NCBI GenBank assembly: GCA_047456305.1
Contig: CP179888.1
Coordinates: forward strand, 445,307 to 509,306
Reading direction: 5' to 3'
DNA length: 64,000 bases
Source of the DNA: Candidatus Nealsonbacteria bacterium
GTDB lineage: Bacteria > Patescibacteriota > Minisyncoccia > Minisyncoccales > CAZKCU01
In this document: piece after piece, positions 2,775 to 54,925 of the stretch
Numbering within the stretch: the first letter of the stretch is position 1
Layout of the letters: every line of letters begins with the position of its first letter
Translations under genes and position numbers: made by a program
The notes under the pieces: model-generated
Databases searched by the model: none
Told to the model about the DNA's origin: nothing
What the model saw: only the letters and a program-made list of their open reading frames with translations

Positions 2775-3364
2775 TTACTTTAACCGATGAAAATTTTGAA
2801 AAGGAAATCACGAAAAGCGATAAGCCAGTTTTAGTTGATTTTTGGGCGCTCTGGTGTTCGCCTTGTTTTGTTCTTACTCCAATTTTAGAAAAATTGGCTG
2901 AGGAATATAAAGATAAATTTATTTTAGCTAAAGTTAATTTAGATTATGCCCCGATTGCTGCTCAAAAATATAGGATTGATAGGATACCGGCTGTTGTTCT
3001 TTTCAAAAATGGAAAGCCGGTTAGTGGTTTTATTGGAGTGAAGCCTGAGCCAGTAGTAAAAGATATAATCAGCCAAATGTTAGAAGATAGCGAAAAAAAA
3101 ATAGGAGAGATAGAAAATATAATTAAAAATTACCAGGAATATGCCCAGAAAAATGGGTTTAAGCTAAATCCAGATAAGGGAATAGTGGAGAGATTAGTTA
3201 AAGGGTTATTAGAGAATGAAAAAAAATACGGGGCTCGATATTGTCCTTGCCGAAGGATAACGGGAAATCCGGAAGATGATAAAGGAAAAATCTGCCCTTG
3301 CTATTGGCATCAGGAAGAACTTGAAAGAGACGGCCATTGCTTTTGTGGATTATTTGTAAAATAA
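2771..3364 (+). CDS. thioredoxin (WCSPC) fused to a ferredoxin:thioredoxin-reductase catalytic-subunit-like domain
   Basis: N-terminal VDFWALWCSPC thioredoxin motif; C-terminal YCPCR...CPCYWH...GHCFCGLF matches the CPC/CPC/CxC pattern of FTR catalytic chains. Confidence 0.65.
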   Translation: MITLTDENFEKEITKSDKPVLVDFWALWCSPCFVLTPILEKLAEEYKDKFILAKVNLDYAPIAAQKYRIDRIPAVVLFKNGKPVSGFIGVKPEPVVKDIISQMLEDSEKKIGEIENIIKNYQEYAQKNGFKLNPDKGIVERLVKGLLENEKKYGARYCPCRRITGNPEDDKGKICPCYWHQEELERDGHCFCGLFVK

Positions 3365-4676: not shown

Positions 4677-5421
4677 TTTAATAGTTGGAATTTTTATCGG
4701 AGCTGCATCCGGCTACCTGGGTTCTTTAATGTTGTCAAAAAGAATGGCTTTGGTAGCTGGTCCTCTCGGCCATTTAACTTTACCGGGAATTGCCTTGGCT
4801 CTTATTTACGGCTTTGATGTTTCTTTAGGCGCTTTCCCTTTTGTTATCTTGGGAATAATTGTGATTTGGCTGTTTGAGATGAGAACAAAATTGCCAATGG
4901 AGGCCTTAACAGCCATTATTTTTGCTTCCGGCGTAGCTGTCGCTTTTTTGTTTTTACCAATTGCCCAAGCCGAAACTGCCTTAGTTGGCGACATTTCTCA
5001 GGTAAGTTTTTGGGATGGAGTGATTTCCATCTTTTTGTGCCTTTCTCTCTTTTTAGTAATAAGAAAAATTTATCCGAAAATGACTCTAATAAGCATTTCT
5101 GAAGATTTAGCCAAAGTTGAAGGAATAAATATTAAAAAATATAATTTTATTTATTTAGCAGCAATTGCTATAATTGTGGCTTTGGGAGTAAAAATAGTTG
5201 GCGGTCTTTTAACCGCAGCTTTAGTAGCCATTCCTGCCGCTACGGCCAGAAATTTAAGCAAAAATCTTTCTCAGTATACTTTTGGAGGAATGATAATTGG
5301 GAGTTTAAGTTGTCTTTTGGGTATTTTACTTTTTAAACTAACCGGATTTCCGGCCGGTCCTTTAGTCATTTTAACTGCTACCTTCTTTTTCTTAATTTCT
5401 TTAATTTTTAAGAAAAAATAA
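4654..5421 (+). CDS. metal ABC transporter permease (ZnuB-like)
   Basis: polytopic membrane ORF overlapping the preceding ABC ATPase gene. Confidence 0.7.
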   Translation: MEIHYLLSLIVGIFIGAASGYLGSLMLSKRMALVAGPLGHLTLPGIALALIYGFDVSLGAFPFVILGIIVIWLFEMRTKLPMEALTAIIFASGVAVAFLFLPIAQAETALVGDISQVSFWDGVISIFLCLSLFLVIRKIYPKMTLISISEDLAKVEGINIKKYNFIYLAAIAIIVALGVKIVGGLLTAALVAIPAATARNLSKNLSQYTFGGMIIGSLSCLLGILLFKLTGFPAGPLVILTATFFFLISLIFKKK

Positions 5422-5459: not shown

Positions 5460-6341
5460 ATGAAAAATTCAAAATTAAAATTAGTAATTACTTCAGGGAA
5501 AGGCGGAGTTGGAAAATCTATGTTGACTTCGGTTTTGGCAATGCTCCTTTCACAAATTAAAAAAGTGGTGGCGGTAGATTGTGATGCCGACGCGCCTAAT
5601 TTAGCTATTTGGTTGGGTGGGGTTAAAAAATGGGACAAAACCATTCCGGTTATTACTTCAGCTAAACCGGAGTTTGATTATAGAAAATGTAATGGCTGCG
5701 GCCTTTGTGCTAAAAATTGCCGATTTTCAGCCATCGAGATGGTAAATAGTAAACCTCAGCTGAACCCTTTCTTATGTGAAGGTTGTGGGGCTTGTGAAGT
5801 TGTTTGTCCTCAAAAAGCAATTAAAATGAAGCCAGTTCAAAATGGAGAGATTCAAATCAAAAAAACAAAATATGGTTTTCCCTTAGTTTCTGGCCAACTT
5901 TTTCCAGGAGAATCAGGTTCTGGTAAAGTAGTCGCCGAGATTAAAAAAGAGGCAGAAAAATTCAATTATAAAGTAATGTTAATTGATTCTGCTCCGGGAA
6001 CTGGTTGTCCAGTGATTGCTTCTTTACAAGATTCAAATTTTGCTATTTTAATTACCGAACCAACTCCTTCAGGATTTTCGGATTTAAAAAGAGTTTTAGA
6101 GGTAGTTAATCATTTTAAAATTCCCTATGGTATAGTAGTTAATAAGTGGGATATTAACTTCCAACTGAGCAATAAAATTAAAAATTTTGCCAAAAAGAAA
6201 TTCTTAGGTAGAATATCTTATGATAAAAAGATATTTAAAGCCATTGCTAATCTAACCCCAATTTTAGAAACAAATCTAAAAGCAAAAAAGGAAATTAATA
6301 ATATTTTTAAAAAAGTAAACAAACTATGGCTCGACCAATAA
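5460..6341 (+). CDS. second MinD/ParA-type P-loop ATPase with 2x[4Fe-4S] ferredoxin insert
   Basis: SGKGGVGKS P-loop; CNGCGLCAKNC and CEGCGACEVVCP motifs; paralog of 1935-2774. Confidence 0.7.
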   Translation: MKNSKLKLVITSGKGGVGKSMLTSVLAMLLSQIKKVVAVDCDADAPNLAIWLGGVKKWDKTIPVITSAKPEFDYRKCNGCGLCAKNCRFSAIEMVNSKPQLNPFLCEGCGACEVVCPQKAIKMKPVQNGEIQIKKTKYGFPLVSGQLFPGESGSGKVVAEIKKEAEKFNYKVMLIDSAPGTGCPVIASLQDSNFAILITEPTPSGFSDLKRVLEVVNHFKIPYGIVVNKWDINFQLSNKIKNFAKKKFLGRISYDKKIFKAIANLTPILETNLKAKKEINNIFKKVNKLWLDQ

Positions 6342-7845: not shown

Positions 7846-7937
7846 TAGATACCCGAGCCGCAGGCGAAGAAAACAGAGTTTTCTTCTTTACCTTCGCTTT
7901 CATAAATGAAAGCTCGGTGGATGATGAAGGTATCTAA
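7846..7937. repeat. composite box-hairpin repeat (small-element family) closed by a 9-bp inverted repeat
   Basis: TTAGATACC...GGTATCTAA flank ACCCGAGCCGCAGGCGAAG and ACCTTCGCT-TTCAtaaaTGAA-AGCTCGG boxes shared with the copies at 54874, 40571 and 49914. Confidence 0.6.
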
Positions 7938-15101: not shown

Positions 15102-16073
15102 ATGTCAAACAAATCTTTAATAATTCCTACAAGTTCAATCAATAATGACCTGATAAATCCTGATGCTTTTAAAAATCAGGAAATCTTGAGTATTGTCATT
15201 GATCCAAAAAAGACCTTCAATTACTTGGACATTTCCTCCGGAAGCCGGGCTGACTACAAATACCGGTTAGGTTTGTTTCTCAACTTTATGAGAAATAAGT
15301 CATTGAGTTTGAATTGCCTGTTGGAATACAAAAGGTATTTGAAGAACTTGATAAATTACAGCACCGCTACAAAAAACCATTACCTCCTTGTGGGCTTGAA
15401 GCTCCTGCGCGAATATCACAGGCAGGGAATTTTAAAAAGAGATATAACTTCCAACATAGAACTTTTTAAAGAAGAAAAGAATAAAATGAAGGTTGAGGAA
15501 TTTAATGAGCAAGAGATGACCAAAATCCTGAATGCCTTAAAGGAATTGCCGAACACAAAAGAGAATAGTCGCCTGAAAGCGATGATGAGCTTGCTGATAT
15601 TTCAGGGCTTGAGATTGATAGAGCTGACAAGGATTGATTACCCTGCTGATGTTGATTTTGGAAATAAAATCATTCAAATTCAAGGAAAGGGTAAGGAATA
15701 CAAACAACCGGTAGATTTACACCCCAAAACTATTGCCGAGCTGAAAAAGTATGTTTCAACCAATGGAATTAAAAGCGGGTCATTGTTCTTTTGTAAGAGC
15801 AACCGCAACCTCCACCAGAAAATAACCACCTCTGGAATTAGGAAGATTATCAAGAAATTTTTGAAGAGTTTGGGAATAGACAGGAATATCCACGCATTCA
15901 GGCACTCCTTTTGCGGTATGCTGGCTCTCAACAAAAACCTGACTACGCTTGATATGGCGCAGTTCTCACGACACTCAAATCCTGCTCAATTACAGGCGTA
16001 TATTGACAGAAGAAAATTCAAATCCAAAATTCCCGAATTCTATAAATGCTTTAGAGGGTGGAATATGAGATGA
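15102..16073 (+). CDS. tyrosine recombinase / integrase (XerC/D-like)
   Basis: GLRLIEL (Arg), HAFRHSF (His-x-x-Arg) and RHSNPAQLQAY (His...Tyr) catalytic motifs. Confidence 0.85.
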   Translation: MSNKSLIIPTSSINNDLINPDAFKNQEILSIVIDPKKTFNYLDISSGSRADYKYRLGLFLNFMRNKSLSLNCLLEYKRYLKNLINYSTATKNHYLLVGLKLLREYHRQGILKRDITSNIELFKEEKNKMKVEEFNEQEMTKILNALKELPNTKENSRLKAMMSLLIFQGLRLIELTRIDYPADVDFGNKIIQIQGKGKEYKQPVDLHPKTIAELKKYVSTNGIKSGSLFFCKSNRNLHQKITTSGIRKIIKKFLKSLGIDRNIHAFRHSFCGMLALNKNLTTLDMAQFSRHSNPAQLQAYIDRRKFKSKIPEFYKCFRGWNMR

Positions 16074-18910: not shown

Positions 18911-20572
18911 ATGACCAAAGTAGCAATATACATCCGGGTCTCAACCCAGCGTCAAGAAAAAGAAGAAACAGAAAAAACTCAACTATCTAAATTAAAAGAA
19001 TATTGTAAAAAAAATGACTATCAGATAGTCAAAGAATATTCTGATGTTTGTTCAGGTGCTTATCTATCAAGAACCGCCTTAAACCAATTAAGAGAAGATG
19101 TGAAGAAAGGAATCTTTGATGTTATTTGTGTTTATGCTCTTGATAGATTATCCAGAAAATTAGGACATCAAATAGCATTGCTTGATGAATTTGAAAAAGA
19201 AGCAAAAGTTAAAGTGGAAAGTTTGGAAGAAAAATTTGAAGATAGTCCTGAAGGAATGTTAAACCGAAATATGAGAGGAGCTTTCGCTGAATATGAAAGA
19301 TATAAAATAGCCAAGCGTCTAATGGACGCAAAATGGAGCAAAGTGAAGGAAAAAAAGCTAATTGGTTGTTATCCTCCTTTCGGCTATACTAATGTTAAAA
19401 AGACAGATGACACGCCGGCTCATTTTCTAATAAACCCAAAAGAAGTTTCAATAGTTAGGTTGATATTTAAGATTTATCTTGAAACAAATAGCACTTATCA
19501 AACAGCTATTCAACTTAAGGAAATGGGAATTAAAGGCAGAGGCAGAGGCAAGGGCAAAAATGGTAAGGACAAGCCGACATCTCTTCACCCAAAAACAATC
19601 CGAGAAATGCTGAAGAATGAATCATACATTGGTAATTGGTATTATGGCAAAACCTATTGTTGCGAGGCAAAGTATCACATTAAAGAGGAAAGGAAGCATA
19701 AAATAACCGGAAGAAAAATTAGACCCAAGTCAGATTGGAAACTGGTGAAAATACCAGAAATTATTGATAAAGAAATTTTTGATAGAGTTCAAGAAAAAAT
19801 GAATAAAAAGAAAAGTGATTATTTAAAACCATCAAAAAAGCATTTTTATCTTTGTCAAAGTTTAATTAAGTGTATTCATTGTAAAAGGACTTATAGTGGT
19901 CATAAGCAAACTAACAGAAAAAGAAAAAAACCTTTCTTCACTTATTATTGTGGGCAAAAATATCCAAGAAGAAATAAGCTTGATGAAGTTGCCTGTCCCT
20001 CAAGGTCAATGGGAAGAGACAGATTGGATAATGCTGTTTGGGATTATGTTAAATCTTTGGTTAGTGATGAGAATAAAGTCAAAAAGGGAATAAAAAAATT
20101 AGCAGAGAAAAGAGAAAAAGATAGGTCATTTAATCAGAAAGTTTATAATTCTCTGATAGCTGAAAAAGGGAAACTGGAAAAAAAGAAGCAGAGATTTATA
20201 GATCTCTATGGCGATGAAAACTTCACTCAAGAAGAGATAGATAATAAAGTTTCAGAAGTCAACAGCTTACAAGAAAATTTGAATAATCAAATAAGAGAAG
20301 TAGAAAAAGAATTTCAAAAGATAGAAAATCTTAAACTAATAGAAAAGGAAATTGAAAAACTTTGTTTTAGATATAAAACTAAAATAAAAAAGAATCCAAG
20401 CCCAGAATTAAAGAAATTTATTGTCAGAAGTTGGATAAAAGAAATAAATATACTTGATGACGGAAGAGTTTTTATCAAAGCAAAATTGCCGGAATTAGAA
20501 GAAATTTCAAGGGAGAAATTAGAATTTCCCTCTCAAAAGCGTATTCCAGCACAAACTCCTCAATCTTTATAG
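18911..20572 (+). CDS. large serine recombinase (integrase)
   Basis: VAIYIRVSTQRQ (catalytic Ser), YALDRLSR, recombinase domain, Cys-rich zinc-ribbon region (CIHC...C...C) and C-terminal coiled coil; ends in attR. Confidence 0.9.
   Translation: MTKVAIYIRVSTQRQEKEETEKTQLSKLKEYCKKNDYQIVKEYSDVCSGAYLSRTALNQLREDVKKGIFDVICVYALDRLSRKLGHQIALLDEFEKEAKVKVESLEEKFEDSPEGMLNRNMRGAFAEYERYKIAKRLMDAKWSKVKEKKLIGCYPPFGYTNVKKTDDTPAHFLINPKEVSIVRLIFKIYLETNSTYQTAIQLKEMGIKGRGRGKGKNGKDKPTSLHPKTIREMLKNESYIGNWYYGKTYCCEAKYHIKEERKHKITGRKIRPKSDWKLVKIPEIIDKEIFDRVQEKMNKKKSDYLKPSKKHFYLCQSLIKCIHCKRTYSGHKQTNRKRKKPFFTYYCGQKYPRRNKLDEVACPSRSMGRDRLDNAVWDYVKSLVSDENKVKKGIKKLAEKREKDRSFNQKVYNSLIAEKGKLEKKKQRFIDLYGDENFTQEEIDNKVSEVNSLQENLNNQIREVEKEFQKIENLKLIEKEIEKLCFRYKTKIKKNPSPELKKFIVRSWIKEINILDDGRVFIKAKLPELEEISREKLEFPSQKRIPAQTPQSL
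20563..20570. other. attR core (ATCTTTAT)
   Basis: identical to 8356-8363; MBL homology resumes immediately. Confidence 0.7.
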
Positions 20573-22808: not shown

Positions 22809-22839
22809 TTTTTCCCCAGATTTGACACGTACCGAATAG

Positions 22840-22911
22840 TCGGGGCGCTGAGAATCGAACTCAGATCACAAGACCCCCAGCCTTGCATACTAACCGTTGT
22901 ACTACGCCCCG
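22840..22911 (-). tRNA. tRNA-Pro (anticodon GGG)
   Basis: hand-folded cloverleaf: acceptor CGGGGCG/CGCCCCG, D stem GTAC/GTAT, anticodon stem CAAGG/TCTTG with loop CTGGGGG, T arm CTGAG-TTCGATT-CTCAG, discriminator A; no encoded CCA. Confidence 0.85.
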
Positions 22912-24934: not shown

Positions 24935-27109
24935 ATGCCTCGTTTATATCCAATTGAAAAGGTCAAAGATATAGGAATTATTGCTCATATTGATGCCGGA
25001 AAAACAACCGTGACAGAACGGGTGCTTTTTTATACCGGAATTTCCCATAAAATTGGAGAAGTTCACGATGGCCAAGCTATTATGGATTGGATGGAGCAAG
25101 AAAGAGAAAGAGGGATTACTATTACCGCTGCTGCCACCACCTGTTTTTGGACTCCACAAGATTTGGACGCCACCCTCCCGCCACCCCGAAAAAAAGATTA
25201 CAACCCACCCACCGCGTCCTCCCATTCGCCTGTCGGCGAACGGGTCCCTAATGAATATAGAATAAATATCATTGATACTCCAGGCCATATTGATTTTACT
25301 GCCGAAGTTCAAAGGTCTCTAAGGGTCTTAGATGGAGCAGTTGTGGTTTTTGATGGGGTGGCGGGAGTAGAGCCTCAGTCAGAAACTGTTTGGCGTCAGG
25401 CTGATACCTTTAAAATTCCCAGAATCTGCTTTATAAACAAAATGGACAGAATAGGAGCCTCTTTTGAAAAAAGTTTAGAATCTATTTTGGAAAAATTATC
25501 TCCGAATGCTCTAGCCCTTCAGCTACCAATTGGCGAAGAAGATAAATTTGAAGGAGTGATTGATCTTTTAAATCTGAAAGCTCTAAAATTTGAAGGTGAT
25601 TTCGGTCAAATAGTAAAAGAAGAAGATATTCCCGCTAATTTATTGGAAAAGGCAAAGGAATGGCGGGCAAAATTAGTTGAGAAAATTGTTGCTGAAGATG
25701 AAAGACTCTTGGAGAAATTTTTAGCTAAAAAAGAAGTTTCTATTGATGAGCTAAGAAAAGTTTTAAGAAAAGCTGTTTTAGACTACAAACTCGTTCCAGT
25801 TTTTTGCGGAGCAGCTCTCAGAAATATAGGAATCCAACCCCTCTTAGATGGAATTTGTTATTATCTTCCCAGTCCTTTAAATCTTCCACCGGTTAAGGGA
25901 ATTGATCCTAAAGATGGAAAAGAAATTGAAAGAAAACCGGAGGATTCAGAAAAATTTTCTGCCTTGGTCTTTAAAGTTGCGGATGACCCTTATGTTGGAA
26001 CCCTAACCTATTTTCGAGTTTATTCTGGTTTCTTAACAAGAGGCTCTTATTTATTAAACTCAACAACAGGAGAGAAAGAAAGGATTGGCCGGATTTTAAG
26101 AATGCATGCTTCGGAAAGAGAAGAGGTAAAAGAAATTTTCACCGGGGATATTGCTGCCACTATAGGGCTGAAAAAAACGTCCACCGGACATACTCTCTGT
26201 GAGATTAATAATCCAATTGTTCTTGAAAAAATTAGTTTTCCTGAACCGGTTATCTCTATACGCATTGAGCCAAAAACCCGGGCTGACCAGGAAAAGATGA
26301 GTTTGGCTCTAAGAAGATTGTCAGAAGAAGACCCCACTTTTAAAACCAAAAGTGATTTAGAAACTGGAGAGACGATTATTTCTGGAATGGGAGAATTGCA
26401 CCTTGAGATTATTGTTGATCGTATGAAAAGAGAATTTAAAGTGGAAGGCCTGGTGGGAAAACCTCAGGTAGCTTATAAGGAGACTATCAAACAGACTGCA
26501 GAGGCTGAAGGAAAATATATTAGACAATCGGGAGGACGAGGTCAATATGGTCATGTTTGGCTAAAGGTTTTACCAAAAAATAGGGGAGAGGGATTCGAAT
26601 TTATTGATGAAATCAAAGGCGGAATTATTCCCAAAGAATTTATTCCGGCAGTAGGAAAGGGAGTAAAGGAAGCTATAGAGAAAGGAATTCTGGCTGGATA
26701 TCCGATGGTTGATATGGAAGTTAGGCTGTATGATGGTTCTTTCCATGATGTAGATTCTTCAGAGGTCGCTTTTAAAATTGCAGGTTCTATAGCTCTTCAA
26801 GAAGCTTCCAAGAGAGCAAAACCAGTGATCCTCGAGCCAATTATGCGGCTTGAGGTTATTGTTCCTGAGGAATTTTTTGGTGATACTATCGGAGATTTAT
26901 CAGCCAGAAGGGGAAAAATTGAAGAGACTAAAGATAGATTAAATCTAAAAGTTATTGATGTTATTGTTCCTTTAGCTGAAATGTTTGGTTATGCCACTGC
27001 CCTACGTTCCTTGACTGAAGGCAGAGGAACCTTTACAATGGAATTTAATTACTACGAGGAAGTACCGGCAAATATTGCTCAGGAAATTATCGAAGGGCGA
27101 AGAAGATAA
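24935..27109 (+). CDS. fusA: elongation factor G, with a ~30-aa GC-rich insertion in the G domain
   Basis: [26 protein letters not shown]. Start taken at the ATG at 24935. Confidence 0.95.
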
Positions 27110-27190
27110 ATCTTCTTCTTGACCCTTCGCTAACGCTCGGGTGGCCGAAGAAGATAAATCTTCTTTTTTTCCCTTCGCTATCGCTCGGGA
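27091..27190 (+). repeat. two tandem small hairpin-box elements overlapping the fusA stop
   Basis: CGAAGGG-c-GAAGAAGA-taaa-TCTTCTTC-ttga-CCCTTCGCTAACGCTCGGG, then GAAGAAGAtaaaTCTTCTT...CCCTTCGCTATCGCTCGGGAG. The fusA TAA lies in the first hairpin loop. Confidence 0.8.
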
Positions 27191-27228
27191 GAAAGAGGAG
27201 ATGATTTTTATCCACAATTAGAGAACCA

Positions 27229-34756: not shown

Positions 34757-34926
34757 CAGCTTTTGGAAGATAATTTTTGGTACACGCAAATTTTTCCAGC
34801 GAAAATTTGCTCCTACTCGCGAATTGCTCGCCGCGAAGCGGCGAGACCAAGCCAATTCGCTGCGGACTCCACCCACCCGCCACCCTCCTAAGAGGCACCT
34901 GTCCCAAAAATTACTTCCCTCGCTTA
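34757..34926 (+). repeat. family A structured repeat, copy 3 (between rplN and rplX), carrying an extra CCACCC-rich ~33-nt insert
   Basis: about 90 percent identical by eye to copy 5, except for CTCCACCCACCCGCCACCCTCCTAAGAGGCACC at 34868-34900. Confidence 0.8.
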
Positions 34927-36090: not shown

Positions 36091-36600
36091 ATGACTGACC
36101 CTATCACCGATATGCTCAATCGAATAAGAAATGCTCAAGCTGTTTTAAAAGAAACGGTTGATATTCCTTTTTCTAATTTAAAATATGAAATTTCTAAAAT
36201 TTTAGAAAAGGAAAATTTTATTGAGAAGGTCGAAAAAAAAGGAAGGAAAAGTAAAAAATTCATTAAAATTAGCTTAAAATACTTGCCCTCCCGAGCGATA
36301 GCGAAGGGGAAAGAAGAAAGCTTGCTTTCTTCGCCCTCCCGAGCGACAGCGAAAGGGGAAGAAAAGGATAAATCCTCTTCGCCCTTCCAAGTTTTGCAAG
36401 ATAAAATAAAGGTGGCAGCAATTTCTGGTTTAAAAAGAATTTCCAAACCAGGCCAAAGGATTTACCTTTCAGCTAAAAAAATGCGGAGAGTGAGAGGGGG
36501 TTATGGAATAGCAATAATCTCAACACCAAAAGGATTGATGACTGATAAAAAAGCGAGGAGGCAGAAATTGGGAGGGGAAGTTTTATGTGAAGTCTGGTAA
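36091..36600 (+). CDS. rpsH: 30S ribosomal protein S8, with a ~35-aa repeat-derived insertion
   Basis: DPI.DML.RIRNA at the N-terminus and GGE.LC.VW at the C-terminus; 169 aa against ~130 aa typical. Confidence 0.9.
   Translation: MTDPITDMLNRIRNAQAVLKETVDIPFSNLKYEISKILEKENFIEKVEKKGRKSKKFIKISLKYLPSRAIAKGKEESLLSSPSRATAKGEEKDKSSSPFQVLQDKIKVAAISGLKRISKPGQRIYLSAKKMRRVRGGYGIAIISTPKGLMTDKKARRQKLGGEVLCEVW
36286..36388 (+). repeat. two tandem 48-nt small hairpin-box elements inside rpsH, in frame
   Basis: CCCTCCCGAGCGATAGCGAAGGGGAAAGAAGAAAGCTTGCTTTCTTCG followed by CCCTCCCGAGCGACAGCGAAAGGGGAAGAAAAGGATAAATCCTCTTCG. Confidence 0.85.
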
Positions 36601-37172: not shown

Positions 37173-37215
37173 ACCCGAGCGTAGCGAAGGGTGAAGAAGA
37201 GGATTTATCCTCTTT
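37173..37215 (+). repeat. small hairpin-box element (between rplF and rplR)
   Basis: ACCCGAGCGTAGCGAAGGGTGAAGAAGAGGATttatCCTCTT. Confidence 0.75.
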
Positions 37216-37222
37216 GACTAAA

Positions 37223-40573: not shown

Positions 40574-40668
40574 TCGAGAGAAGAAGCTTGCTTCTTCGAA
40601 CCCATCTGCGCTAGTCGATGAAGCTAAAGCTTCATCTCCATCTTCGCTTCCACAAGTGGAAGCTCGAT
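40571..40668 (+). repeat. three consecutive box-hairpin units (between adk and map)
   Basis: TCGAGAGAAGAAGCttgcTTCTTCGAACCC; TCGATGAAGCtaaaGCTTCATC; CTTCGC-TTCCAC-aa-GTGGAA-GCTCGA. Confidence 0.6.
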
Positions 40669-40670
40669 AA

Positions 40671-41435
40671 ATGATTACAATAAAATCAAAAGAGGAAATC
40701 GCTATAATTGCAGAAGGTGGTAAAATCCTGGCAAAAATTATGGCTGAGATAGAAAGAGAAATTCAGCCAGGAATTAAAACTCGCGAATTAGACAGGCTTG
40801 CTGAAAGCCTGATTTTAAAATCTGGAGGAAAATGTTCTTTTAAAGGATATCAAAAATTTCCGGCTTGTTTATGTACATCAATTAATGAAGAAATTGTTCA
40901 CACAGCTCCCTCAGACCGGCAATTAAAGGAAGGCGATATAATTTCTCTTGATTTGGGGATTTGTTTTAAAGGTTTTCATACCGATATGGCGGTTACCCTT
41001 CCGGTTACGAAACCCGGCAATGTAGGGAAAATTGACCCAGAGGCTTTAAGATTAATTCGGGTAACAAAAAAATCTCTAAAAAGAGGAATTAAAAAAGTTC
41101 ACCCGGGAAATACTTTTGGTGATATTGGAAATACTATTCAAAGATATGTTGAGAGCCAGGGATTCAATGTTGTCCGTGATCTTTGCGGTCATGGTATAGG
41201 AAAAGAGATTCACGAGGAACCCCAAATACTTAATTACGGAAAAAGACACACAGGTCCTAAAATTCAAGAGGGGATGATTTTTTGTATTGAACCGATGGTA
41301 ACAATAGGGGATTGGAAAATAAAAAAAAGCAAGGATGGTTACGGATTTGAAACAGCCGATGGTTCCTTGTCTTGCCATTTTGAACATACAATGGCTGTAA
41401 CAAAAGATAGTTGTCAGATCTTGACAGAAATTTAA
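40671..41435 (+). CDS. map: methionine aminopeptidase, type I
   Basis: operon position after adk; size and overall type I MAP pattern (..HG...D..L..GDI...D) by eye. Confidence 0.95.
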   Translation: MITIKSKEEIAIIAEGGKILAKIMAEIEREIQPGIKTRELDRLAESLILKSGGKCSFKGYQKFPACLCTSINEEIVHTAPSDRQLKEGDIISLDLGICFKGFHTDMAVTLPVTKPGNVGKIDPEALRLIRVTKKSLKRGIKKVHPGNTFGDIGNTIQRYVESQGFNVVRDLCGHGIGKEIHEEPQILNYGKRHTGPKIQEGMIFCIEPMVTIGDWKIKKSKDGYGFETADGSLSCHFEHTMAVTKDSCQILTEI

Positions 41436-41556: not shown

Positions 41557-42306
41557 ATGTACTTATCCGTCATCGTTCCTGCCTATAATGAGGAAAGGAG
41601 GTTGCCAAAAACTTTGCGAGAAATCGACAAATATTTAAGGGCAAAAACTTACGATTACGAAATTATTGTTGTTTCCGATGGTTCAAAAGACAGAACAGTT
41701 GAAGTTGTTAGGAATTTAATGGCCGAAATTAAGAATCTGAAAATCCTTGATTTTAAAGAAAATCAGGGTAAAGGTTTTGGTGTCCGCCAGGGAATGCTGG
41801 AGGCAAAAGGGGATTTTCGGCTTTTTACCGATGCCGACAATTCCACTTCGGTCGACCAAGTTGAAAAAATGTGGCCAGAATTTAAGAAGGGCTATGATAT
41901 TGTTATTGGGTCAAGAGATGTGAAGGGAGCGGTTTTAGATCCGCCCCAATCCTGGCTTCATGGATTTTTGGCTGACATTTTTAAGTTATTACGAAAAATA
42001 ATTGCTGGCCTTTGGGAACTTGAAGATACTCAATGTGGTTTTAAATGCTTTACTAAAAAAGCAGCTGAAAGCATTTTTCCCAAGTGTAAAATTAATCGTT
42101 TTGCTTTTGACCCAGAATTTTTAATTGTAGCTAAAAAATTAAGATATAAAATCAAAGAAATTCCAATTTATTGGAAAAATGACCCAGAAAGTAAAGTAAA
42201 GTTCAAAAGCATGGTAAAAATGGGAATTGATTTGTTAAAAATAAGGTGGAATTTAATAACTGAAAAGTATGATGAAACTAAAGTTTCATCAACAGCTTCG
42301 TTTTAA
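41557..42306 (+). CDS. family-2 glycosyltransferase (polyprenol-phosphate glycosyltransferase-like)
   Basis: SVIVPAYNEE, VVSDGSKD and DADNS motifs. Confidence 0.8.
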   Translation: MYLSVIVPAYNEERRLPKTLREIDKYLRAKTYDYEIIVVSDGSKDRTVEVVRNLMAEIKNLKILDFKENQGKGFGVRQGMLEAKGDFRLFTDADNSTSVDQVEKMWPEFKKGYDIVIGSRDVKGAVLDPPQSWLHGFLADIFKLLRKIIAGLWELEDTQCGFKCFTKKAAESIFPKCKINRFAFDPEFLIVAKKLRYKIKEIPIYWKNDPESKVKFKSMVKMGIDLLKIRWNLITEKYDETKVSSTASF

Positions 42307-42324
42307 TAAATTAAAACTCGCTAT

Positions 42325-43362
42325 ATGAATAAGAAAATTAATCAGAAGAAATTTCCTTCTGAATTACGGTTTGATTTGACTTCAAAAGATTGGGTTGTCA
42401 TTGCTACAGGTAGAGCAAAAAGGCCGGAAACTTTCAAGAGAGAAAAGCGGAAAAAAGAGGAATCCCCCAAAGCTCTATGTCCTTTTTGTCAAATTTCCAC
42501 TCAAGAAGCTCCTGTTTTAATTTTTTCTCATGGAAAAAAAATACCTTTAGAAAGGGGAATTCCTAAAGATTGGACTACTATTTCTATTCCTAATAAATTT
42601 CCAGCCTTTCTCCCTTCTAAAAAATTAAATCCAAGAGTTGAAGGAAAATTTTATAAAACAATAAATGCGGTAGGTTTCCATGAAGTAGTAATTACCAGAG
42701 ACCATAAAAAATCAATGGGTCAATTTTCAATTAGTCAGGTTAAAGAAGTACTTGATGTTTACCAGGAAAGATATTTAGAATTAATGAAAGAAAAATTTGT
42801 TAATTACGTTTCTATTTTTCATAACCATGGAGTTGAAGCTGGAGCTTCGATGTCGCATCCTCACTCCCAAATTATAACTACCCCTTTAATTGATGTTGAC
42901 CTTAAAAAAGCTCTCTTTAATTCAAGAAAATATTATAGAGCCCATCGAAAATGTATTTATTGTCAGATGAATAATTGGGAAAAGAAAAATAAAAAAAGAG
43001 TAGTTTTTGAAAATAAAGATTTTTTAGTAATTTGTCCCTTTGCTTCAAAAGCTGCCTTTGAAGTTATTATTTCTCCCCAAAAACATTTAGCTTATTTTGA
43101 GAAAATAACCGAAAAAGAAAAAGAGCTTTTATCTGAAGCTTTCCAGATAGCCTTAAACAAACTTTACAAAGCCCTGAATGATCCGGCTTATAATTTCTAT
43201 TTGCATACTTCCCCTTGCGATGGGAAAAAATATCCCTTTTACCACTGGCACTGGACAATATTACCAAAAACCGCTACCTGGGCTGGTTTTGAAATCGGCA
43301 CCAGAATGGAAATTTCTACCATTGAACCTAAAAAAGCTGCTGAATATTTAAGAAAGCAATAA
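42325..43362 (+). CDS. galactose-1-phosphate uridylyltransferase-like (GalT/HIT superfamily)
   Basis: CPFC zinc motif; HPHSQI (HxHxQ) active site. Confidence 0.7.
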   Translation: MNKKINQKKFPSELRFDLTSKDWVVIATGRAKRPETFKREKRKKEESPKALCPFCQISTQEAPVLIFSHGKKIPLERGIPKDWTTISIPNKFPAFLPSKKLNPRVEGKFYKTINAVGFHEVVITRDHKKSMGQFSISQVKEVLDVYQERYLELMKEKFVNYVSIFHNHGVEAGASMSHPHSQIITTPLIDVDLKKALFNSRKYYRAHRKCIYCQMNNWEKKNKKRVVFENKDFLVICPFASKAAFEVIISPQKHLAYFEKITEKEKELLSEAFQIALNKLYKALNDPAYNFYLHTSPCDGKKYPFYHWHWTILPKTATWAGFEIGTRMEISTIEPKKAAEYLRKQ

Positions 43363-43364
43363 AT

Positions 43365-43558
43365 ATTGCTCGGCAATGAAGTGTTAAAGTACCGATAGTT
43401 CAAATCCCAGCGCGAAGAGGATAAATTCTCTTCTTCCCCCTTCGCTATCGCTCGGGAGCGAGATTTGACTATCTACATTCTCGTCCCGTCGCTCCGACTT
43501 CGTCGGAGACCGTGCCGACGGGACTGCGAAAGTTACTTTAAAACTTATTGCCTCGCTT
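43365..43558 (+). repeat. family A structured repeat, copy 4, with a small hairpin-box element nested in its first loop
   Basis: TTGCTCGGCAA...TTGCCTCGCT. CCCAGCG[43413-43460 insert]CGAGATTTG; GTCCCGTCG/CGACGGGAC around CTCCGAC-ttcg-GTCGGAG then ACCGTGCC. Confidence 0.8.
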
Positions 43559-44354: not shown

Positions 44355-44387
44355 TTTTCTTTTTTATTTTTGTTATTCTAATAAAGA

Positions 44388-44554
44388 ACCCACATCGGAA
44401 GGGGGTCGGGGAAACCCTTCGGTTTCCCCGTGTAGGAAAATATTAAAAACCGAGGGTTTTTAAAGAGCGAGCCCGAAGCGAGGCTGAGCTTGTCGAAGCC
44501 GAGCGCCAGCCGTAAGGCTGGATGAGGGCGAGCGACTAACTTAGTAATACCACT
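44388..44554 (+). repeat. family B structured element, copy 1, ending exactly at the ATG of 44555
   Basis: shares ACCCAyATCGGAAGGGGGTCGGGGAAACCyTTCGGTTTCCCCGTGTAGGAAAATA, GAGGGTTTyTTAA(A)GAGCGAGCCCGAAG and GAGGGCGAGCGACTAACTTAGTAAyACCACT-ATG with 50574-50760. Confidence 0.8.
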
Positions 44555-45082: not shown

Positions 45083-46870
45083 ATGAATTCAAAAAGGCTT
45101 CGTCAGAAATTTTTAGAGTTTTTTGAAAAAAGAGGGCATAAAGTAGTGCCCTCAAGTTCGTTATTATCAACTGACCCCAGTGTTTTGTTTACCAGTGCTG
45201 GAATGCAGCAATTCAAAGTCTATTATTTAGGCGAGAAATCACCATATGGGTTGGATGTTGTTTCCTGTCAGAAATGTTTCAGGACCTCTGATATTGAGGA
45301 GGTGGGAAATGAAAAACATTTAACTTTTCTTGAAATGCTGGGCAATTTTTCTTTTGGGGGATATTTTAAAAAAGAAGCGATAAATTGGGCTTATCAATTT
45401 CTTTTTGAAGAATTAAAATTGCCAATAGAAGAAGCTATTTTCACGGTTTTTAAGGGTAACAAAGATGTCCCAGAAGATAAAGAATCGATTGAAATTTGGA
45501 AAAAATTAGGAATTCCCGAAAATAAAATAAAAAAATGTGGAAGAGCAGATAATTTTTGGGGGCCGACCGGCGAAGAAGGTCCTTGCGGCCCAACAACCGA
45601 AATTCATCTTCGAGGCATTGAGGTTTGGAATTTGGTTTTTAATGAATATTATCAAGACTACAACCCGCCCACCACCCACTCACCACCACGAAACAAAAAA
45701 TTAACTCCTTTAAAACAAAAAGGAGTAGATACTGGAATGGGTCTGGAAAGATTAGCTATGGTTGTTCAAAATAAACCCAGCGTCTTCGAGACCGATTTGT
45801 TTGAGCCTATTATCGGCGAGCTCCAAAAATACACGGGTCCCACCCCTGCAAATTTAAAAGCAGAAAGGATTATTGCTGACCACATTAAGGGTTCGATTTT
45901 TTTGATAGCAGAGGGGATTTTTCCTTCTAATGTGGAAGAAGGTTATGTTTTAAGAAGGATTCTACGAAGAGCGATAAGATTTGGGAAACTTTTAGACTAC
46001 AACCCACCCACCACCCAATATAGTTTTTTAATTCCTTTGGCTCAAAAAGTTATTGAAATTTATCAAGACATTTATCCCGAAGTAAAATCCCGAGAAGCTG
46101 ATATCTTAACTGTTATTCAAAAAGAAGGAGAGAAATTTGAAAAAACTTTGGAAAAAGGACTCAAAGAGTTTGGGAAAATTGCAGCCAAAGGCGATATTAA
46201 GGGAGATGAAGCCTTTCATCTTTATGATACTTACGGCTTTCCATTGGAGTTGACCGGAGAGTTGGCTAAAGAAAAGGGGCTGAAAGTCGATGTTAAAGGA
46301 TTCGAGGAATCCTTTAGAAAACACCAAGAAATTTCAAGAGCAGGTGTAGAAAAAAAATTTGGCGGAGTAGGGAAGAAAGTAACTTACGAATCAACTAAGC
46401 TTCATACAGCCACCCATTTACTTCACTCAGCTTTGAGAAAGATTTTCGGTGAACATGTTAGACAAATGGGATCTGACATTACTCTTCAGCGCCTTCGCTT
46501 TGATTTTTCTCATCCACAAAAAATGACAATTGAGGAGATAAAAAAAGTTGAAGATTTAGTTAATCAAAAAATTAGAGAAAATTTGGAGGTAAGAAAGGAA
46601 GAGATGTCATTGAAAGAAGCTCTAAATTCAGGAGCCTTATCTTTTTTTAAAGAGAAATACCCGGAAAAAGTAACTGTCTATTCAATAACCGAGCTTCTGA
46701 AGGAAGCGAAGGTGAAGAAGAGGACGAAGTCCTCTTCGCCTAAAGCTTTTTCAAAAGAAATTTGTGCCGGCCCCCATGTTAAAAAGACATCCGAATTAGG
46801 CAGTTTTAAAATTATAAAGGAAGAATCTTCTGGAGCAGGCGTGCGAAGAATTCGAGCTATTTTAAGATAA
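45083..46870 (+). CDS. alaS: alanyl-tRNA synthetase, short form (no C-Ala domain), with three small in-frame insertions
   Basis: F..F..RGH..V.SS.L; DTGMGLERL; HTATHLLH; CAGPHV. Confidence 0.9.
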   Translation: MNSKRLRQKFLEFFEKRGHKVVPSSSLLSTDPSVLFTSAGMQQFKVYYLGEKSPYGLDVVSCQKCFRTSDIEEVGNEKHLTFLEMLGNFSFGGYFKKEAINWAYQFLFEELKLPIEEAIFTVFKGNKDVPEDKESIEIWKKLGIPENKIKKCGRADNFWGPTGEEGPCGPTTEIHLRGIEVWNLVFNEYYQDYNPPTTHSPPRNKKLTPLKQKGVDTGMGLERLAMVVQNKPSVFETDLFEPIIGELQKYTGPTPANLKAERIIADHIKGSIFLIAEGIFPSNVEEGYVLRRILRRAIRFGKLLDYNPPTTQYSFLIPLAQKVIEIYQDIYPEVKSREADILTVIQKEGEKFEKTLEKGLKEFGKIAAKGDIKGDEAFHLYDTYGFPLELTGELAKEKGLKVDVKGFEESFRKHQEISRAGVEKKFGGVGKKVTYESTKLHTATHLLHSALRKIFGEHVRQMGSDITLQRLRFDFSHPQKMTIEEIKKVEDLVNQKIRENLEVRKEEMSLKEALNSGALSFFKEKYPEKVTVYSITELLKEAKVKKRTKSSSPKAFSKEICAGPHVKKTSELGSFKIIKEESSGAGVRRIRAILR

Positions 46871-46879
46871 AAATAAGCC

Positions 46880-46924
46880 GAATTCTTCTTACCCCTTCGC
46901 TGGCGCTCGGGAATAAGAAGAATT
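46880..46924 (+). repeat. small element with arms flanking the box (after alaS)
   Basis: GAATTCTTCTTA-CCCCTTCGCTGGCGCTCGGG-AATAAGAAGAATT. Confidence 0.75.
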
Positions 46925-46958: not shown

Positions 46959-48278
46959 ATGAAGATTAGTTTTCTTAAACCCAAGAAGAAGGGGGAGTAT
47001 TTTTTAGTTTTAGATATCGGCACAGAAGCAGTAAAAGCTATAATTTTTTCTCTCTCAGAAAAAAAAGATAAAAAGATTACTATTTTGGGAAACTCTCTTT
47101 CCTACTTTGACAGTTACGGGCTATTTGACAGTCAGGATTTTGAAGCCGATGTTGTTAAAAAAACTATTTCAAAAACGATTAAAGAGGCTCAAGAAAAAGT
47201 TAATCAAAAGCCAAGCGAGGCGGAGCCGAGCGAGGCGGGAGATGAGACGAAGTCTCAGCGACCGCCTAACCTGACATTACTTGAATTGCCAGCTAACATT
47301 TTAAAAGGAAGAATTGCTTTTCAGTCTTTTAAAAGAAAAAATTCTCAATCGATTATTGACAAAAAAGAGAAAGAAGTGATTTATCAGAAGATTTTAAGCA
47401 AGGCTCAAAATGAAATTTCCCAGATTTTTGCCACAGAATCCGGCATTTTGCCAAAAGATGTTCACTTTATTAACCTAAAAATCCTGGAAATAAAAATTGA
47501 TGGATATGTAGTGCCAGTTCTTCAAGGGTATGATGGAAAAAATTTAGATTTTAGAATTTTAGCTATTTTTTTACCGAAATATTATTTAGAGAATATCAAA
47601 AAAATTATTCAGGCTTTAATTCCTACTGATTTTTATAGAGATAAATATATCCAGGAAGACTTTACCAAAAACGAGGAGGGATTAGAAATTCTCCACCTTG
47701 CGGAAGCCTTACCTTATTTCTTTACAAGGAGAGTGGTTGATGGAATTTTTCTTGATGTTGGAGGAAATTTGACCCAGATTTTTTTAGTAAACAATGGAAA
47801 ACTAAATAATGTCGATGAATTCGAAATAGGAGGAAAAACTTTTTCCCAAGCTCTTTCTCAGAGCTTGGGAATAGAAATTTCAGAGGCAAGAGTTTTAAAA
47901 GAAAATTATTCTAAAGGAGAATTATCAGAAGAAGTGAGAAAAAGAGTTAGAGAGATTTTTTCTCAATCTTTAGGAGATTGGTTCAAAAATCTAAAACTAA
48001 AATTAAAGACCCAAAGCATTTTTGGCAGAGGAAGGAAATCTGGAGGTGTACTACTTCCATCAACTTTTTTTCTTTTCGGGGGAGGAAGTCAACTGCCTGA
48101 AATTCAGGAAATTTTAGAAGAGGGGAATTGGGAAGACTTTTCTTTTTTTACTCCCCCAAAAGTAAAATTTATTTATCCAAATGATCTCAGAAATATTGAA
48201 GATATAACAAAAAAATTAAATAGCCCTCAAGACATCCCTGCCTTACTACTTTGTTATGCCTCCCAAATCTATGACTAA
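46959..48278 (+). CDS. actin-like ATPase (FtsA/PilM family)
   Basis: LVLDIGTEAVKA, FLDVGGNLTQI and FGGGSQLP motifs. Confidence 0.6.
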   Translation: MKISFLKPKKKGEYFLVLDIGTEAVKAIIFSLSEKKDKKITILGNSLSYFDSYGLFDSQDFEADVVKKTISKTIKEAQEKVNQKPSEAEPSEAGDETKSQRPPNLTLLELPANILKGRIAFQSFKRKNSQSIIDKKEKEVIYQKILSKAQNEISQIFATESGILPKDVHFINLKILEIKIDGYVVPVLQGYDGKNLDFRILAIFLPKYYLENIKKIIQALIPTDFYRDKYIQEDFTKNEEGLEILHLAEALPYFFTRRVVDGIFLDVGGNLTQIFLVNNGKLNNVDEFEIGGKTFSQALSQSLGIEISEARVLKENYSKGELSEEVRKRVREIFSQSLGDWFKNLKLKLKTQSIFGRGRKSGGVLLPSTFFLFGGGSQLPEIQEILEEGNWEDFSFFTPPKVKFIYPNDLRNIEDITKKLNSPQDIPALLLCYASQIYD

Positions 48279-49868: not shown

Positions 49869-49968
49869 TCAAAGAAGATAAATCTTCTTCTTCACTCTTC
49901 GTTGCGGCTCGGGTAGTCAAAGAAGATAAATCTTCTTTTCCATCTTCGCTTTAATAAATTAAAGCTCA
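49866..49968 (+). repeat. two tandem small hairpin-box units starting at the infA stop codon
   Basis: TAGTCAAAGAAGAtaaaTCTTCTTCTTCACTCTTCGTTGCGGCTCGGG, then TAGTCAAAGAAGAtaaaTCTTCTTTTCCATCTTCGCT-TTAAtaaaTTAA-AGCTCA. Confidence 0.8.
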
Positions 49969-49972
49969 ATAA

Positions 49973-50086
49973 ATGAAGGTTCGCTCATCAGTTAAAAAAA
50001 TTTGTAAAAATTGTAAAATAGTTCGGCGAAAAGGCCGACTCTATGTTATCTGTAAAAATCCCAAGCATAAACAACGCCAAGGATAA
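49973..50086 (+). CDS. rpmJ: 50S ribosomal protein L36
   Basis: hand-translated [37 protein letters not shown]; below the ORF-track cutoff. Confidence 0.9.
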
Positions 50087-50552: not shown

Positions 50553-50573
50553 AGCTTCCTACTAAAACGACCG

Positions 50574-50760
50574 ACCCATATCGGAAGGGGGTCGGGGAAA
50601 CCTTTCGGTTTCCCCGTGTAGGAAAATAAGAGTGAGTTGCTAAAAGCAACGAACGACGTAAGAAAACGAGGGTTTCTTAAGAGCGAGCCCGAAGGTCGAC
50701 GAAGGCGACCGCTGGAGCAAAGCTCCAGAGAGGGCGAGCGACTAACTTAGTAACACCACT
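50574..50760 (+). repeat. family B structured element, copy 2, ending exactly at the rpsK ATG
   Basis: see 44388-44554. Variable helices differ but stay paired: GTCG-acgaagg-CGAC and CTGGAGC-aaa-GCTCCAG, versus GGCT...AGCC and CCAGCC-gtaa-GGCTGG. Confidence 0.8.
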
Positions 50761-54873: not shown

Positions 54874-54925
54874 TACCCGAGCCGCAGGCGAAGGGTGAAG
54901 AAAAGGACGAAGTCCTCTTTGCCTA
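54874..54925 (+). repeat. small hairpin-box element
   Basis: ACCCGAGCCGCAGGCGAAGGGTGAAGAAAAGGACgaaGTCCTCTTTGCC. Confidence 0.75.

Follow-up and report, generated by a model that had tools for sequence, protein, structure and literature searches.

Why should one and the same stretch of DNA be read as the same peptide in two different conserved genes? This question is raised by a stretch of 64,000 nucleotides (the window; 35.6% GC) from a Candidatus Nealsonbacteria bacterium, one of the ultra-small bacteria of the Candidate Phyla Radiation (CPR). The 18-nt pattern GAYTACAACCCRCCCACC occurs in the window exactly three times, always on the plus strand and always read as D-Y-N-P-P-T: at position 25196 in fusA, the gene for elongation factor G (EF-G), and at positions 45656 and 45995 in alaS, the gene for alanyl-tRNA synthetase (AlaRS). 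These three in-frame sites had been noticed in an earlier reading of the sequence alone, and an exact search confirms them: the pattern did not appear once in 100 dinucleotide shuffles, and a profile built later from the conserved head of the element detects just the same three heads. We consider it probable that DYNPPT is the translated 5' head of short GC-rich, non-coding selfish mobile repeats of Nealsonbacteria and related CPR bacteria, that a further insertion in alaS, the box, belongs to a second such family, and that the copies surviving within genes are in-frame insertions in loops.

The motif copies are insertions in alaS and fusA

Compared with their orthologs, all three motif copies are extra sequence. 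The AlaRS of the window has a 100% identical counterpart in the annotation of a Candidatus Nealsonbacteria metagenome-assembled genome. In an alignment of 28 Nealsonbacteria-type AlaRS, YNPPTTHSPP is found in the window protein alone, and DYNPPTTQYS is common only to two 86%-identical orthologs, where it has decayed to DYSPLTTQYS. At the DNA level, we compared the filled sites of the window gene with the orthologs P0002, P0003, P0004 and P0005 (P numbers denote orthologs, L numbers metagenome loci): Site 1 is a clean 30-nt insertion (45659-45688) immediately 3' of host CAAGA(C), it is empty in P0002, P0003 and P0005, and it is missing even in an ortholog that is 94% identical at the nucleotide level. 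At site 2, 27 nt stand in place of 12 nt after TTAGA; here, P0003 and P0004 carry a decayed copy (GACTATAGTCCACTCACTACCCAATATAGT), and P0002 and P0005 have the ancestral LPQG.

In fusA, the element is located in the EF-G loop that follows TTCFW. In solved EF-G structures, and in most of the Nealsonbacteria orthologs, this loop is ~25-30 aa shorter, and the insert splits the alignment with the solved EF-Gs; similarly, the alaS insert positions are gaps relative to the AlaRS of Aquifex. The earlier placement of the motif sites in lengthened loops is confirmed. Our alignments mark the EF-G loop as an insertion hot spot: Among strains with EF-Gs that are 92-98% identical, its occupant is either a DYNPPT or a box element, or else a remnant. 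The DYNPPT element is common to the window and the 98% ortholog P0121 only, a box element occupies exactly the same junction in P0122 (96% identical; between AAAAAAGA and ATGAATAT), and just the 3' remnant GAGCGGGCCCCTAG is left in P0123 (92% identical). Most EF-G orthologs have a short loop, and the distant P0224 has a separate DYNPST copy. In other EF-G lineages, DYNPPT elements are present at two more sites, both of them clean insertions after ...AAAGA: +42 nt after AAAAAAGA at site 278 and +63 nt after CCAAAGA at site 253.

The inserts have diverged about six times as fast as the proteins around them: between host EF-Gs of 96-98% identity they retain 71-86%, with 20% mismatches as compared to 3.4% in the host proteins. 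Decayed copies (P0003, P0180) are altered at synonymous and non-synonymous positions alike, the peptide decays to DYSPLT, DSNPPA and DYNPST, and the frame is kept even where the head or the hairpin is gone (P0003, P0123, P0180). The predicted host-insert junction is read e.g. as ...YYQDYNPPTTHSPPR. Structural mapping agrees with the loop positions: In an AlphaFold model of AlaRS, all three inserts are coil with a predicted local distance difference test score (pLDDT) below 50, with copy 1 (residues 194-203) and the box (residues 540-552) each placed between two strands and copy 2 (residues 301-311) between two helices.

A dispersed repeat with a fixed head and a variable tail

A scan of metagenome contigs with the exact pattern gave at least 120 loci, all of them on contigs of 32-45% GC from many samples, and 114 copies after dereplication; those genome matches that we judged genuine are from Nealsonbacteria or Patescibacteria. 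The copies define a dispersed repeat of ~24-60 nt with an invariant 23-nt head, A-GACTACAACCCNCCCACCRCC-C. The head sequence runs AGACTACAACCCNCCCACCRCC(C/T), only its position 11 varies, and position -1 is an A in 113 of the 114 copies, though it lay outside the search pattern. Beyond the head, the copies differ: The full form, as in fusA, continues with (TC)CTCCC, a hairpin and then GGGCCCCT(A), the short form, as at alaS site 1, with CACACACCNCC, and the minimal form, as at alaS site 2, with CAA only; further copies continue with NNCAAGG... or with an inverted relative. The tail of copy 1 belongs to a class ('THTPPP') that is also present in L170, L197, L201 and the EF-G gene P0180. In the 62 full copies, we found 49 different stem-loops of 4-10 bp, each closed by CCC/GGG, with a mean minimum free energy of -11.4 kcal/mol versus -5.0 kcal/mol for shuffles. 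The hairpin, which lies ~21 nt from the left end, is thus variable in sequence yet always self-complementary. The ends of the element (AGACTACAACCC... and ...GGGCCCCTA) are not reverse complements, i. e. there are no terminal inverted repeats. The complement of the head is GGGAGGGTGGTGGGNGGG, and four C3 tracts give the complementary strand the potential to form a G-quadruplex; the fourth tract is lacking in the short forms.

Relatives with different heads (GGACGCC..., GGACTCC...) exist among the loci, and they explain two segments of the window that had been passed over in the sequence-only reading, as had the full extent of the fusA copy to 25251 and two boxes in rpsH. One of these segments (25165-25188) is similar to the GGACGCCACCCACCCACCACCCTCCC heads of L190 and further loci; the other (34866-34907) is not detected by the head profile. 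No exact head match was found in viral contigs, Rfam at gathering thresholds reports tRNA-Pro alone in the window, and a literature search returned no description of such repeats in CPR bacteria, Patescibacteria or Nealsonbacteria. A scan of genome contigs with a 14-base core gave at least 120 loci, nearly all of them chance matches in high-GC genomes, and was set aside; among the loci listed, L026 (Patescibacteria), L103 (Nealsonbacteria CG11) and L035 (a 3-kb contig of 36% GC labelled Elusimicrobia) look genuine. The by-eye idea that the head folds like a tRNA was dropped, ARAGORN reporting only the intact downstream tRNAs.

Frames, strands and host genes of the copies

Of the 114 copies, 48 are internal to genes in the DYNPPT frame, nine in the +1 frame (TTTHPPP) and 12 in the +2 frame (RLQPTHHPP); 15 are near the ends of open reading frames (ORFs), eight are nominally antisense, and 22 are intergenic, without an ORF. 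Of the nominally antisense copies, most are found upstream of a true start, close to the 5' end of a gene or in a spurious ORF; true antisense genic copies are rare, and none of the antisense in-ORF copies lies in a reverse transcriptase or transposase gene. The DYNPPT frame accounts for 48 of the 69 in-gene sense copies (70%; p=9e-10 vs 1/3). This same-frame recurrence is a real statistical bias and supports selection of insertion site and frame, one of the two explanations offered earlier. Similar rates in all frames and in intergenic DNA had been considered as the opposite outcome: the motif does occur in the other two sense frames and in intergenic DNA, so the DYNPPT frame is a preference and not a rule, but the rates are unequal in its favour. 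The sense strand and this frame are favoured since the coding strand is richer in AAGA, half of whose occurrences are in the phase GA/N: In the genes of the window, 71% of AAGA and 80% of AAAAGA are sense (71-85% over targets), and the G of AAGA is in codon phases 1, 2 and 3 in 50%, 28% and 22% of the cases.

ORFs of at least 100 codons cover ~83% of the locus sequence; thus, genes are not avoided, and the genic share is close to that expected from the coding density. Between genes, 10 copies have one orientation relative to their neighbours and 7 the other. This indicates that the sense bias does not reflect an orientation rule of insertion tied to replication or transcription, and a replication-coupled strand bias was rejected on these counts. 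The length from the head to GGGCCCC modulo 3 is even in intergenic copies (3/5/3) and constrained in genic ones; as it differs by frame class, a model with an element of fixed length was rejected as well. In the genic copies the host frame is open on both sides, with no in-frame stop. Copies also adjoin tRNA genes and nest inside other repeats. The host genes are unrelated: in addition to those for AlaRS and EF-G, they encode an epimerase, arginyl-tRNA synthetase, the FtsZ linker, biotin carboxylase, PGA_cap, a Mur ligase, a radical SAM protein, MurB, an ADK-like protein and PilM.

Several elements can accumulate in one gene. The C-terminal linker of FtsZ in L193 contains three to four elements in differing frames (DYNPPTALPFAKGERAPKK, KKTTTLPPPSRLRRAPRKK, HTPPPPSRQGGPH) plus a box (SEGEENRFSSSP). 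In L143, box and DYNPP copies are present both in an ORF (156-1640) judged by eye to resemble a PilB/GspE-type ATPase and in a neighbouring ORF (2292-3287).

Junctions and duplications

Host AGA is preserved on the left side of the element in five pairs of filled and empty sites and in the tRNA cases described below. On the right side, the junction follows no regular pattern: alaS site 1 has no duplication, alaS site 2 has a 12-nt target deletion, and P0145 shows an imperfect duplication of ~20 nt. Most copies are without a detectable target duplication. Still, direct repeats of the upstream flank recur downstream four to five times more often than at control AAGA sites: a flank-repeat score of at least 10 is reached by 16.5% of the copies vs 4.4% of the controls (p=5e-5), and one of at least 12 by 7.3% vs 1.4%. 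The clear flanking duplications span 11-32 nt, among them a perfect 17-nt duplication in L137 and one of 32 nt that covers a gene start in L146.

Duplicated tRNA positions +1 to 22, ending in GGTAGA, are joined to the head in L220, L150 and L035, with a diverged version in L155 (Table 1). These partial tRNA copies lie 60-110 nt upstream of the intact tRNA and start exactly at tRNA +1 in three independent cases.

A scan for reverse transcriptase motifs over 0.9 Mb of loci gave a single match, in a canonical diversity-generating retroelement (DGR) of L143 (4254-6346), 5.6 kb from a copy. Its target gene has a variable repeat (5021-5139) that is 81% identical to the template repeat (5511-5629) and differs from it at adenines of the template, and a DGR-type reverse transcriptase (LGNITSQLFAN...YCDDF) is encoded downstream of the template. 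The DGR was rejected as a partner of the element: its two repeats, its region for the initiation of mutagenic homing and its hairpin are unrelated to the head.

The box family and other repeats of the window

The box in alaS had been described as a copy of a small intergenic hairpin-box repeat, and a profile match (E=2.4e-8) shows this assignment to be correct. The insertion is real; the first estimate of its size (46699-46740, ~17 aa) was too small, as the alignments give +54 nt relative to empty orthologs, at about 46693-46746. There is a gap in P0005 and P0003, the box is present in P0002, and its peptide is patchily distributed among the 28 aligned AlaRS. Six to seven residues separate its end from the CAGPH zinc motif that follows in the editing domain. 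By iterated nhmmer, we found at least 13 solid copies of the 48-nt box consensus (GGCGAAGAAGATAAATCTTCTTCTTCACCCTTCGCTnnCGCTCGGG) in the window, in both orientations, with the double-hairpin layout GGCGAAGA-hairpin-TCTTCNCCCTTCGCT-NCGCTCGGG; three of the 13 are inside genes. Two tandem copies are read in frame in rpsH (36091-36600), which accounts for the extra length of ribosomal protein S8 (169 aa): the Pfam Ribosomal_S8 match is split in two, with residues 106-169 corresponding to profile positions 63-126. The family also fills the EF-G loop of P0122 and P0124 and other AlaRS sites, as in P0010.

Table 1. Positions of the repeat copies and their host genes in the window and of tRNA-fragment fusions in metagenome loci
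Feature	Positions	Strand	Remarks
alaS, alanyl-tRNA synthetase, 595 aa	45083..46870	+	ORF; Pfam tRNA-synt_2c + tRNA_SAD; hosts three repeat insertions
DYNPPT copy 1, short form	45655..45688	+	head AGACTACAACCCGCCCACCACCC + tail ACTCACCACCA
DYNPPT copy 2, minimal form	45994..46023	+	head AGACTACAACCCACCCACCACCC + AATATAG; after TTTTAGA, 12 host nt replaced
alaS box, complete 54-nt inverted copy	46693..46746 (about)	-	nhmmer match 46703-46740, E=2.4e-8; read ..LLKEAKVKKRTKSSSPKA
fusA, elongation factor G	24935..27109	+	homologues start at MPR and have all EF-G Pfam domains
DYNPPT full-length copy in fusA	25195..25251	+	head AGATTACAACCCACCCACCGCG, linker TCCTCCC, hairpin ATTCGCC-tgtc-GGCGAAC, end GGGTCCCTAA
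Partial element relative (GGACGCCACCCTCCCGCCACCCCG), read ATLPPP	25165..25188	+	directly upstream of the full fusA copy
Intergenic diverged relative (GGACTCCACCCACCCGCCACCCTCCTAAGAGGCACC)	34866..34907	+	by-eye similarity; cf. L238, L221 (...CCCACCACCCTCCTAAAAGGCACC), L139
Two tandem boxes in rpsH	36288..36383	-	in frame, read PSRAIAKGKEESLLSS PSRATAKGEEKDKSSS; nhmmer E=4e-13, 7e-14
Two tandem boxes, fusA stop codon and fusA-tuf spacer	27096..27191	+	nhmmer E=1.5e-16, 3e-15; repeat-scan family D1
Intergenic box	43412..43458	+	nhmmer E=2.4e-16
Two intergenic boxes	49870..49950	+	nhmmer E=8e-14, 6e-7
Intergenic box, rplF-rplR spacer	37173..37216	-	nhmmer E=1.7e-14
Intergenic box	54875..54923	-	nhmmer E=4.6e-11
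Partial box, just downstream of alaS	46883..46912	+	nhmmer E=8e-9
tRNA-fragment fusion, L220	1498-1640		
tRNA-fragment fusion, L150	7554-7717		
tRNA-fragment fusion, L035	1837-1940	-	
tRNA-fragment fusion, L155	5786-5953		

Further repeats are present in the window. The box sub-family D2 (40612-40674, 42266-42328, 49914-49976, 7862-7924) ends with ...CTCGATAAATGA, in which the ATG is the start codon of the downstream gene, e. g. of the ORFs at 40671 and 42325; D2 repeats thus supply the immediate 5' leader of several genes. A GC-rich island (47203-47266) within an FtsA-like ORF (46959-48278) encodes KPSEAEPSEAGDETKSQRPP and resembles insertions (GEAGDGAKPQRPG) in other AlaRS orthologs; it probably represents a third family of in-frame repeats, whose hairpin is GAGAC-gaa-GTCTC. 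Two GC-rich structured repeats of ~150 nt (GGAAGGGGGTCGGGGAAACCCTTCGGTTTCCCCGTGTAGG...GCGAGCGACTA) at 44386-44538 and 50566-50743 lie directly upstream of start codons, and their relatives in at least 10 metagenome loci carry the DYNPPT head right after ...GCGAGCGTTA; these repeats match no Rfam family. Finally, a tyrosine recombinase (15102-16073; Phage_integrase) and a large serine recombinase (18911-20572; Resolvase, Recombinase and Zn_ribbon_recom) sit among ORFs without a family match; the region from about 8 to 21 kb of the window, beside the tRNA-Pro gene (22839-22911), may be an integrated mobile element.

Probable mobile repeats and the alternative explanations

New copies land directly 3' of A-rich host ...AGA, as the five pairs of filled and empty sites and the A at position -1 show; the filled sites are recent insertions. 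The strand and phase bias of AAGA by itself favours the sense strand and the DYNPPT frame. If the DYNPPT elements are selfish mobile repeats with recent activity, selection would then purge copies that break the frame, add stops or code for poorly tolerated peptides, and those that survive would have lengths divisible by three, sit in surface loops of otherwise conserved proteins and be read as linkers rich in Pro, Thr and Ser. After insertion, the copies probably drift nearly neutrally, with trimming or replacement being possible.

Several points weigh against this explanation or limit it. The share of the DYNPPT frame (70%) exceeds the 50% that the codon phase of AAGA predicts (p=8e-4), and we assume that peptide tolerance acts as the additional filter. 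Moreover, most genic copies have a 3' module with the reading xGG-GCC-CCT (R/W-A-P), regardless of the frame of the head, which is beyond what stop avoidance alone explains. In the loci examined, no transposase, reverse transcriptase or master copy is linked to the element. Translation of the inserts is something we infer from sequence, and the AlphaFold model of AlaRS is of moderate quality (mean pLDDT 67). All counts of frames, strands and abundance come from the single exact-pattern metagenome scan with its at least 120 loci; the 114 copies were dereplicated by flank similarity, and some orthologous sites, such as L139 and L140, are counted twice. On the side of the window, the census covers 64 kb, with the rest of the genome outside it.

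Might the peptide itself be what is conserved? A functional peptide had been offered earlier as the second explanation, and D-Y-N-P-P-T(T) could be a short linear motif for binding, modification or targeting that was recruited convergently, the conservation of the DNA being a by-product. The frame excess over the target-phase prediction would fit, as would the presence of the motif at three EF-G sites and two AlaRS sites in different lineages. However, third codon positions within the head are no less conserved than the first and second ones, which points to identity at the DNA level, and identical DNA is also found in two other frames, between genes, beside tRNAs and inside other repeats. Since the copies are lineage-specific, decay at both kinds of positions and diverge about six times as fast as their hosts, which are unrelated cytosolic housekeeping enzymes, this is the least credible of the explanations considered here. 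A conserved DNA-level signal, i. e. an uptake sequence, a protein-binding site or a G-quadruplex that accumulated because it is useful and not because it is mobile, would agree with the strict conservation of the head across many metagenomes, with the G-quadruplex potential of its four C3 tracts and with the dependence on DNA uptake that is presumed for CPR bacteria. But the copies are inserted extra DNA and not the product of mutational convergence, their density is low (three heads in 64 kb), the short forms lack the fourth C tract, and the copies decay after insertion, some of them with flanking duplications that are typical of insertion events; we therefore regard a signal of this kind as very unlikely. 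Removal of the element before or during translation, as a tiny intron-like sequence or by ribosome bypass as with the byps of Magnusiomyces, would leave the host proteins unaltered. It would be in line with GC-rich hairpin insertions in essential genes of an AT-rich genome, with hairpins that keep their pairing and have RNA-like CTTCGG or GAA loops, and with the class of copies that adjoins tRNA sequences. The open frames of the genic copies without any in-frame stop, set against the even length classes of the intergenic ones, the decayed copies that still are in frame, and the predicted coincidence of the inserts with structural loops would not be required if the sequence were removed, and we judge this explanation to be highly improbable.

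As to the mechanism of movement, a miniature single-stranded DNA transposon of the IS200/IS605 type (mobilized by a Y1 HUH or RAYT protein), which inserts 3' of a short target and is recognized by its hairpin, would account for the left end that always abuts retained host AGA, for the absence of a detectable target duplication in most copies, and for the conserved hairpin ~21 nt from the left end in an element whose ends are not inverted repeats. We nevertheless doubt that it applies: there is one hairpin instead of two, the right end is highly variable up to head-only forms, a significant minority of copies has flanking duplications of 11-32 nt, the intergenic copies show no orientation bias relative to their neighbours, and no Y1 gene turned up, although no systematic search for one was made. 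The fixed head, the variable tail and the variable 11-32-nt duplications fit neither classical MITEs nor IS200/IS605 elements. The fixed head and variable tail, along with the occasional long duplications, may point to target-primed copying more than to cut-and-paste. It is tempting to speculate that a G-rich hairpin template pairs through its 3' end (...GGGUUGUAGUCU) with the host DNA 3' end ...AAAGA, which is then extended to make CTACAACCC...; premature stops would yield the head-only forms of alaS, staggered processing of the second strand would yield the 11-32-nt duplications, and the fusions with tRNA positions +1 to 22 would reflect priming by, or template switching with, 5' tRNA fragments. 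Because no RNA intermediate or enzyme has been linked to the element, we propose only very tentatively, as an unlikely option, that it is a bacterial SINE-like retroposon or at least an element copied by target priming.

Relation to known repeats and implications for CPR bacteria

The closest precedent for the mobile repeats proposed here is the Rickettsia palindromic element (RPE). RPEs are selfish repeats of a reduced AT-rich genome that are inserted in frame in unrelated housekeeping genes, where they add peptide segments compatible with the fold, and that are also found in intergenic DNA and in the surroundings of RNA genes (PMC10969869). Like them, the DYNPPT element is an in-frame repeat at fold-compatible positions of unrelated protein genes. 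Yet the DYNPPT elements are not members of the RPE family: RPEs are ~100-150 bp long, reside in Rickettsia and encode a conserved peptide, whereas the DYNPPT elements have 24-60 nt, reside in CPR bacteria and encode a peptide that is not conserved across frames. Again in contrast to RPEs, the DYNPPT and box repeats combine a fixed 23-nt head beside host AGA and a variable tail with at least two co-resident families at the same sites. From RPE-1 to RPE-10 the element is set apart by size and host; we found no relationship in sequence, although without a direct comparison to the RPE sequences.

Other systems share single traits. The GC clusters of yeast mitochondria and the byps of Magnusiomyces are short GC-rich hairpins that spread in AT-rich genomes, including coding sequence; both are organellar, and byps, which the ribosome passes over, have no need to keep the frame. 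The likeness to the DYNPPT elements is that of a short GC-rich hairpin in an AT-rich genome, whereas here the frame is always kept. The box family, of which the alaS box is a member with at least 12 other copies in the window, resembles the REP/BIME, BOX, ERIC and Correia repeats in being made of modular small hairpins in high copy number, often between the genes of operons; those repeats are overwhelmingly extragenic, whereas about three quarters of the DYNPPT copies and three of 13 boxes are in genes. Unlike classical MITEs, the DYNPPT elements lack terminal inverted repeats and a target duplication of fixed length. With IS200/IS605 and REP-RAYT systems they share the insertion 3' of a short unduplicated target (AGA), but those elements have hairpins and conservation at both ends. 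As in target-primed retroposons (LINE/SINE), one end is fixed at an A-rich target, the other is variably truncated, and variable target duplications or small target deletions occur; however, the only reverse transcriptase in 0.9 Mb of loci is that of an ordinary DGR without a link to the element, and we know of no target-primed retroposon of the LINE/SINE type in bacteria. From the DNA uptake sequences USS and DUS, the element differs by its three heads in 64 kb, by being inserted, and by the almost exclusive sense orientation of its genic copies. The anatomy of its junctions, with the head at AGA, a variable tail, variable duplications and 5' fragments of tRNAs, matches no characterised bacterial transposition mechanism.

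The proteins of CPR bacteria and Patescibacteria are known for odd, lineage-specific differences in length. Tiny mobile repeats provide a concrete source for some of these differences: at least two repeat families enter loops of EF-G, AlaRS, S8, FtsZ, MurB, aminoacyl-tRNA synthetases and further core proteins on the time scale of strain divergence. Such insertions disturb the alignments of marker genes that are used in CPR phylogeny, and strains can be told apart sharply by whether they carry a given copy. After Rickettsia, this would be the second independent case in which selfish DNA provides essential proteins of a reduced genome with new loop sequence.

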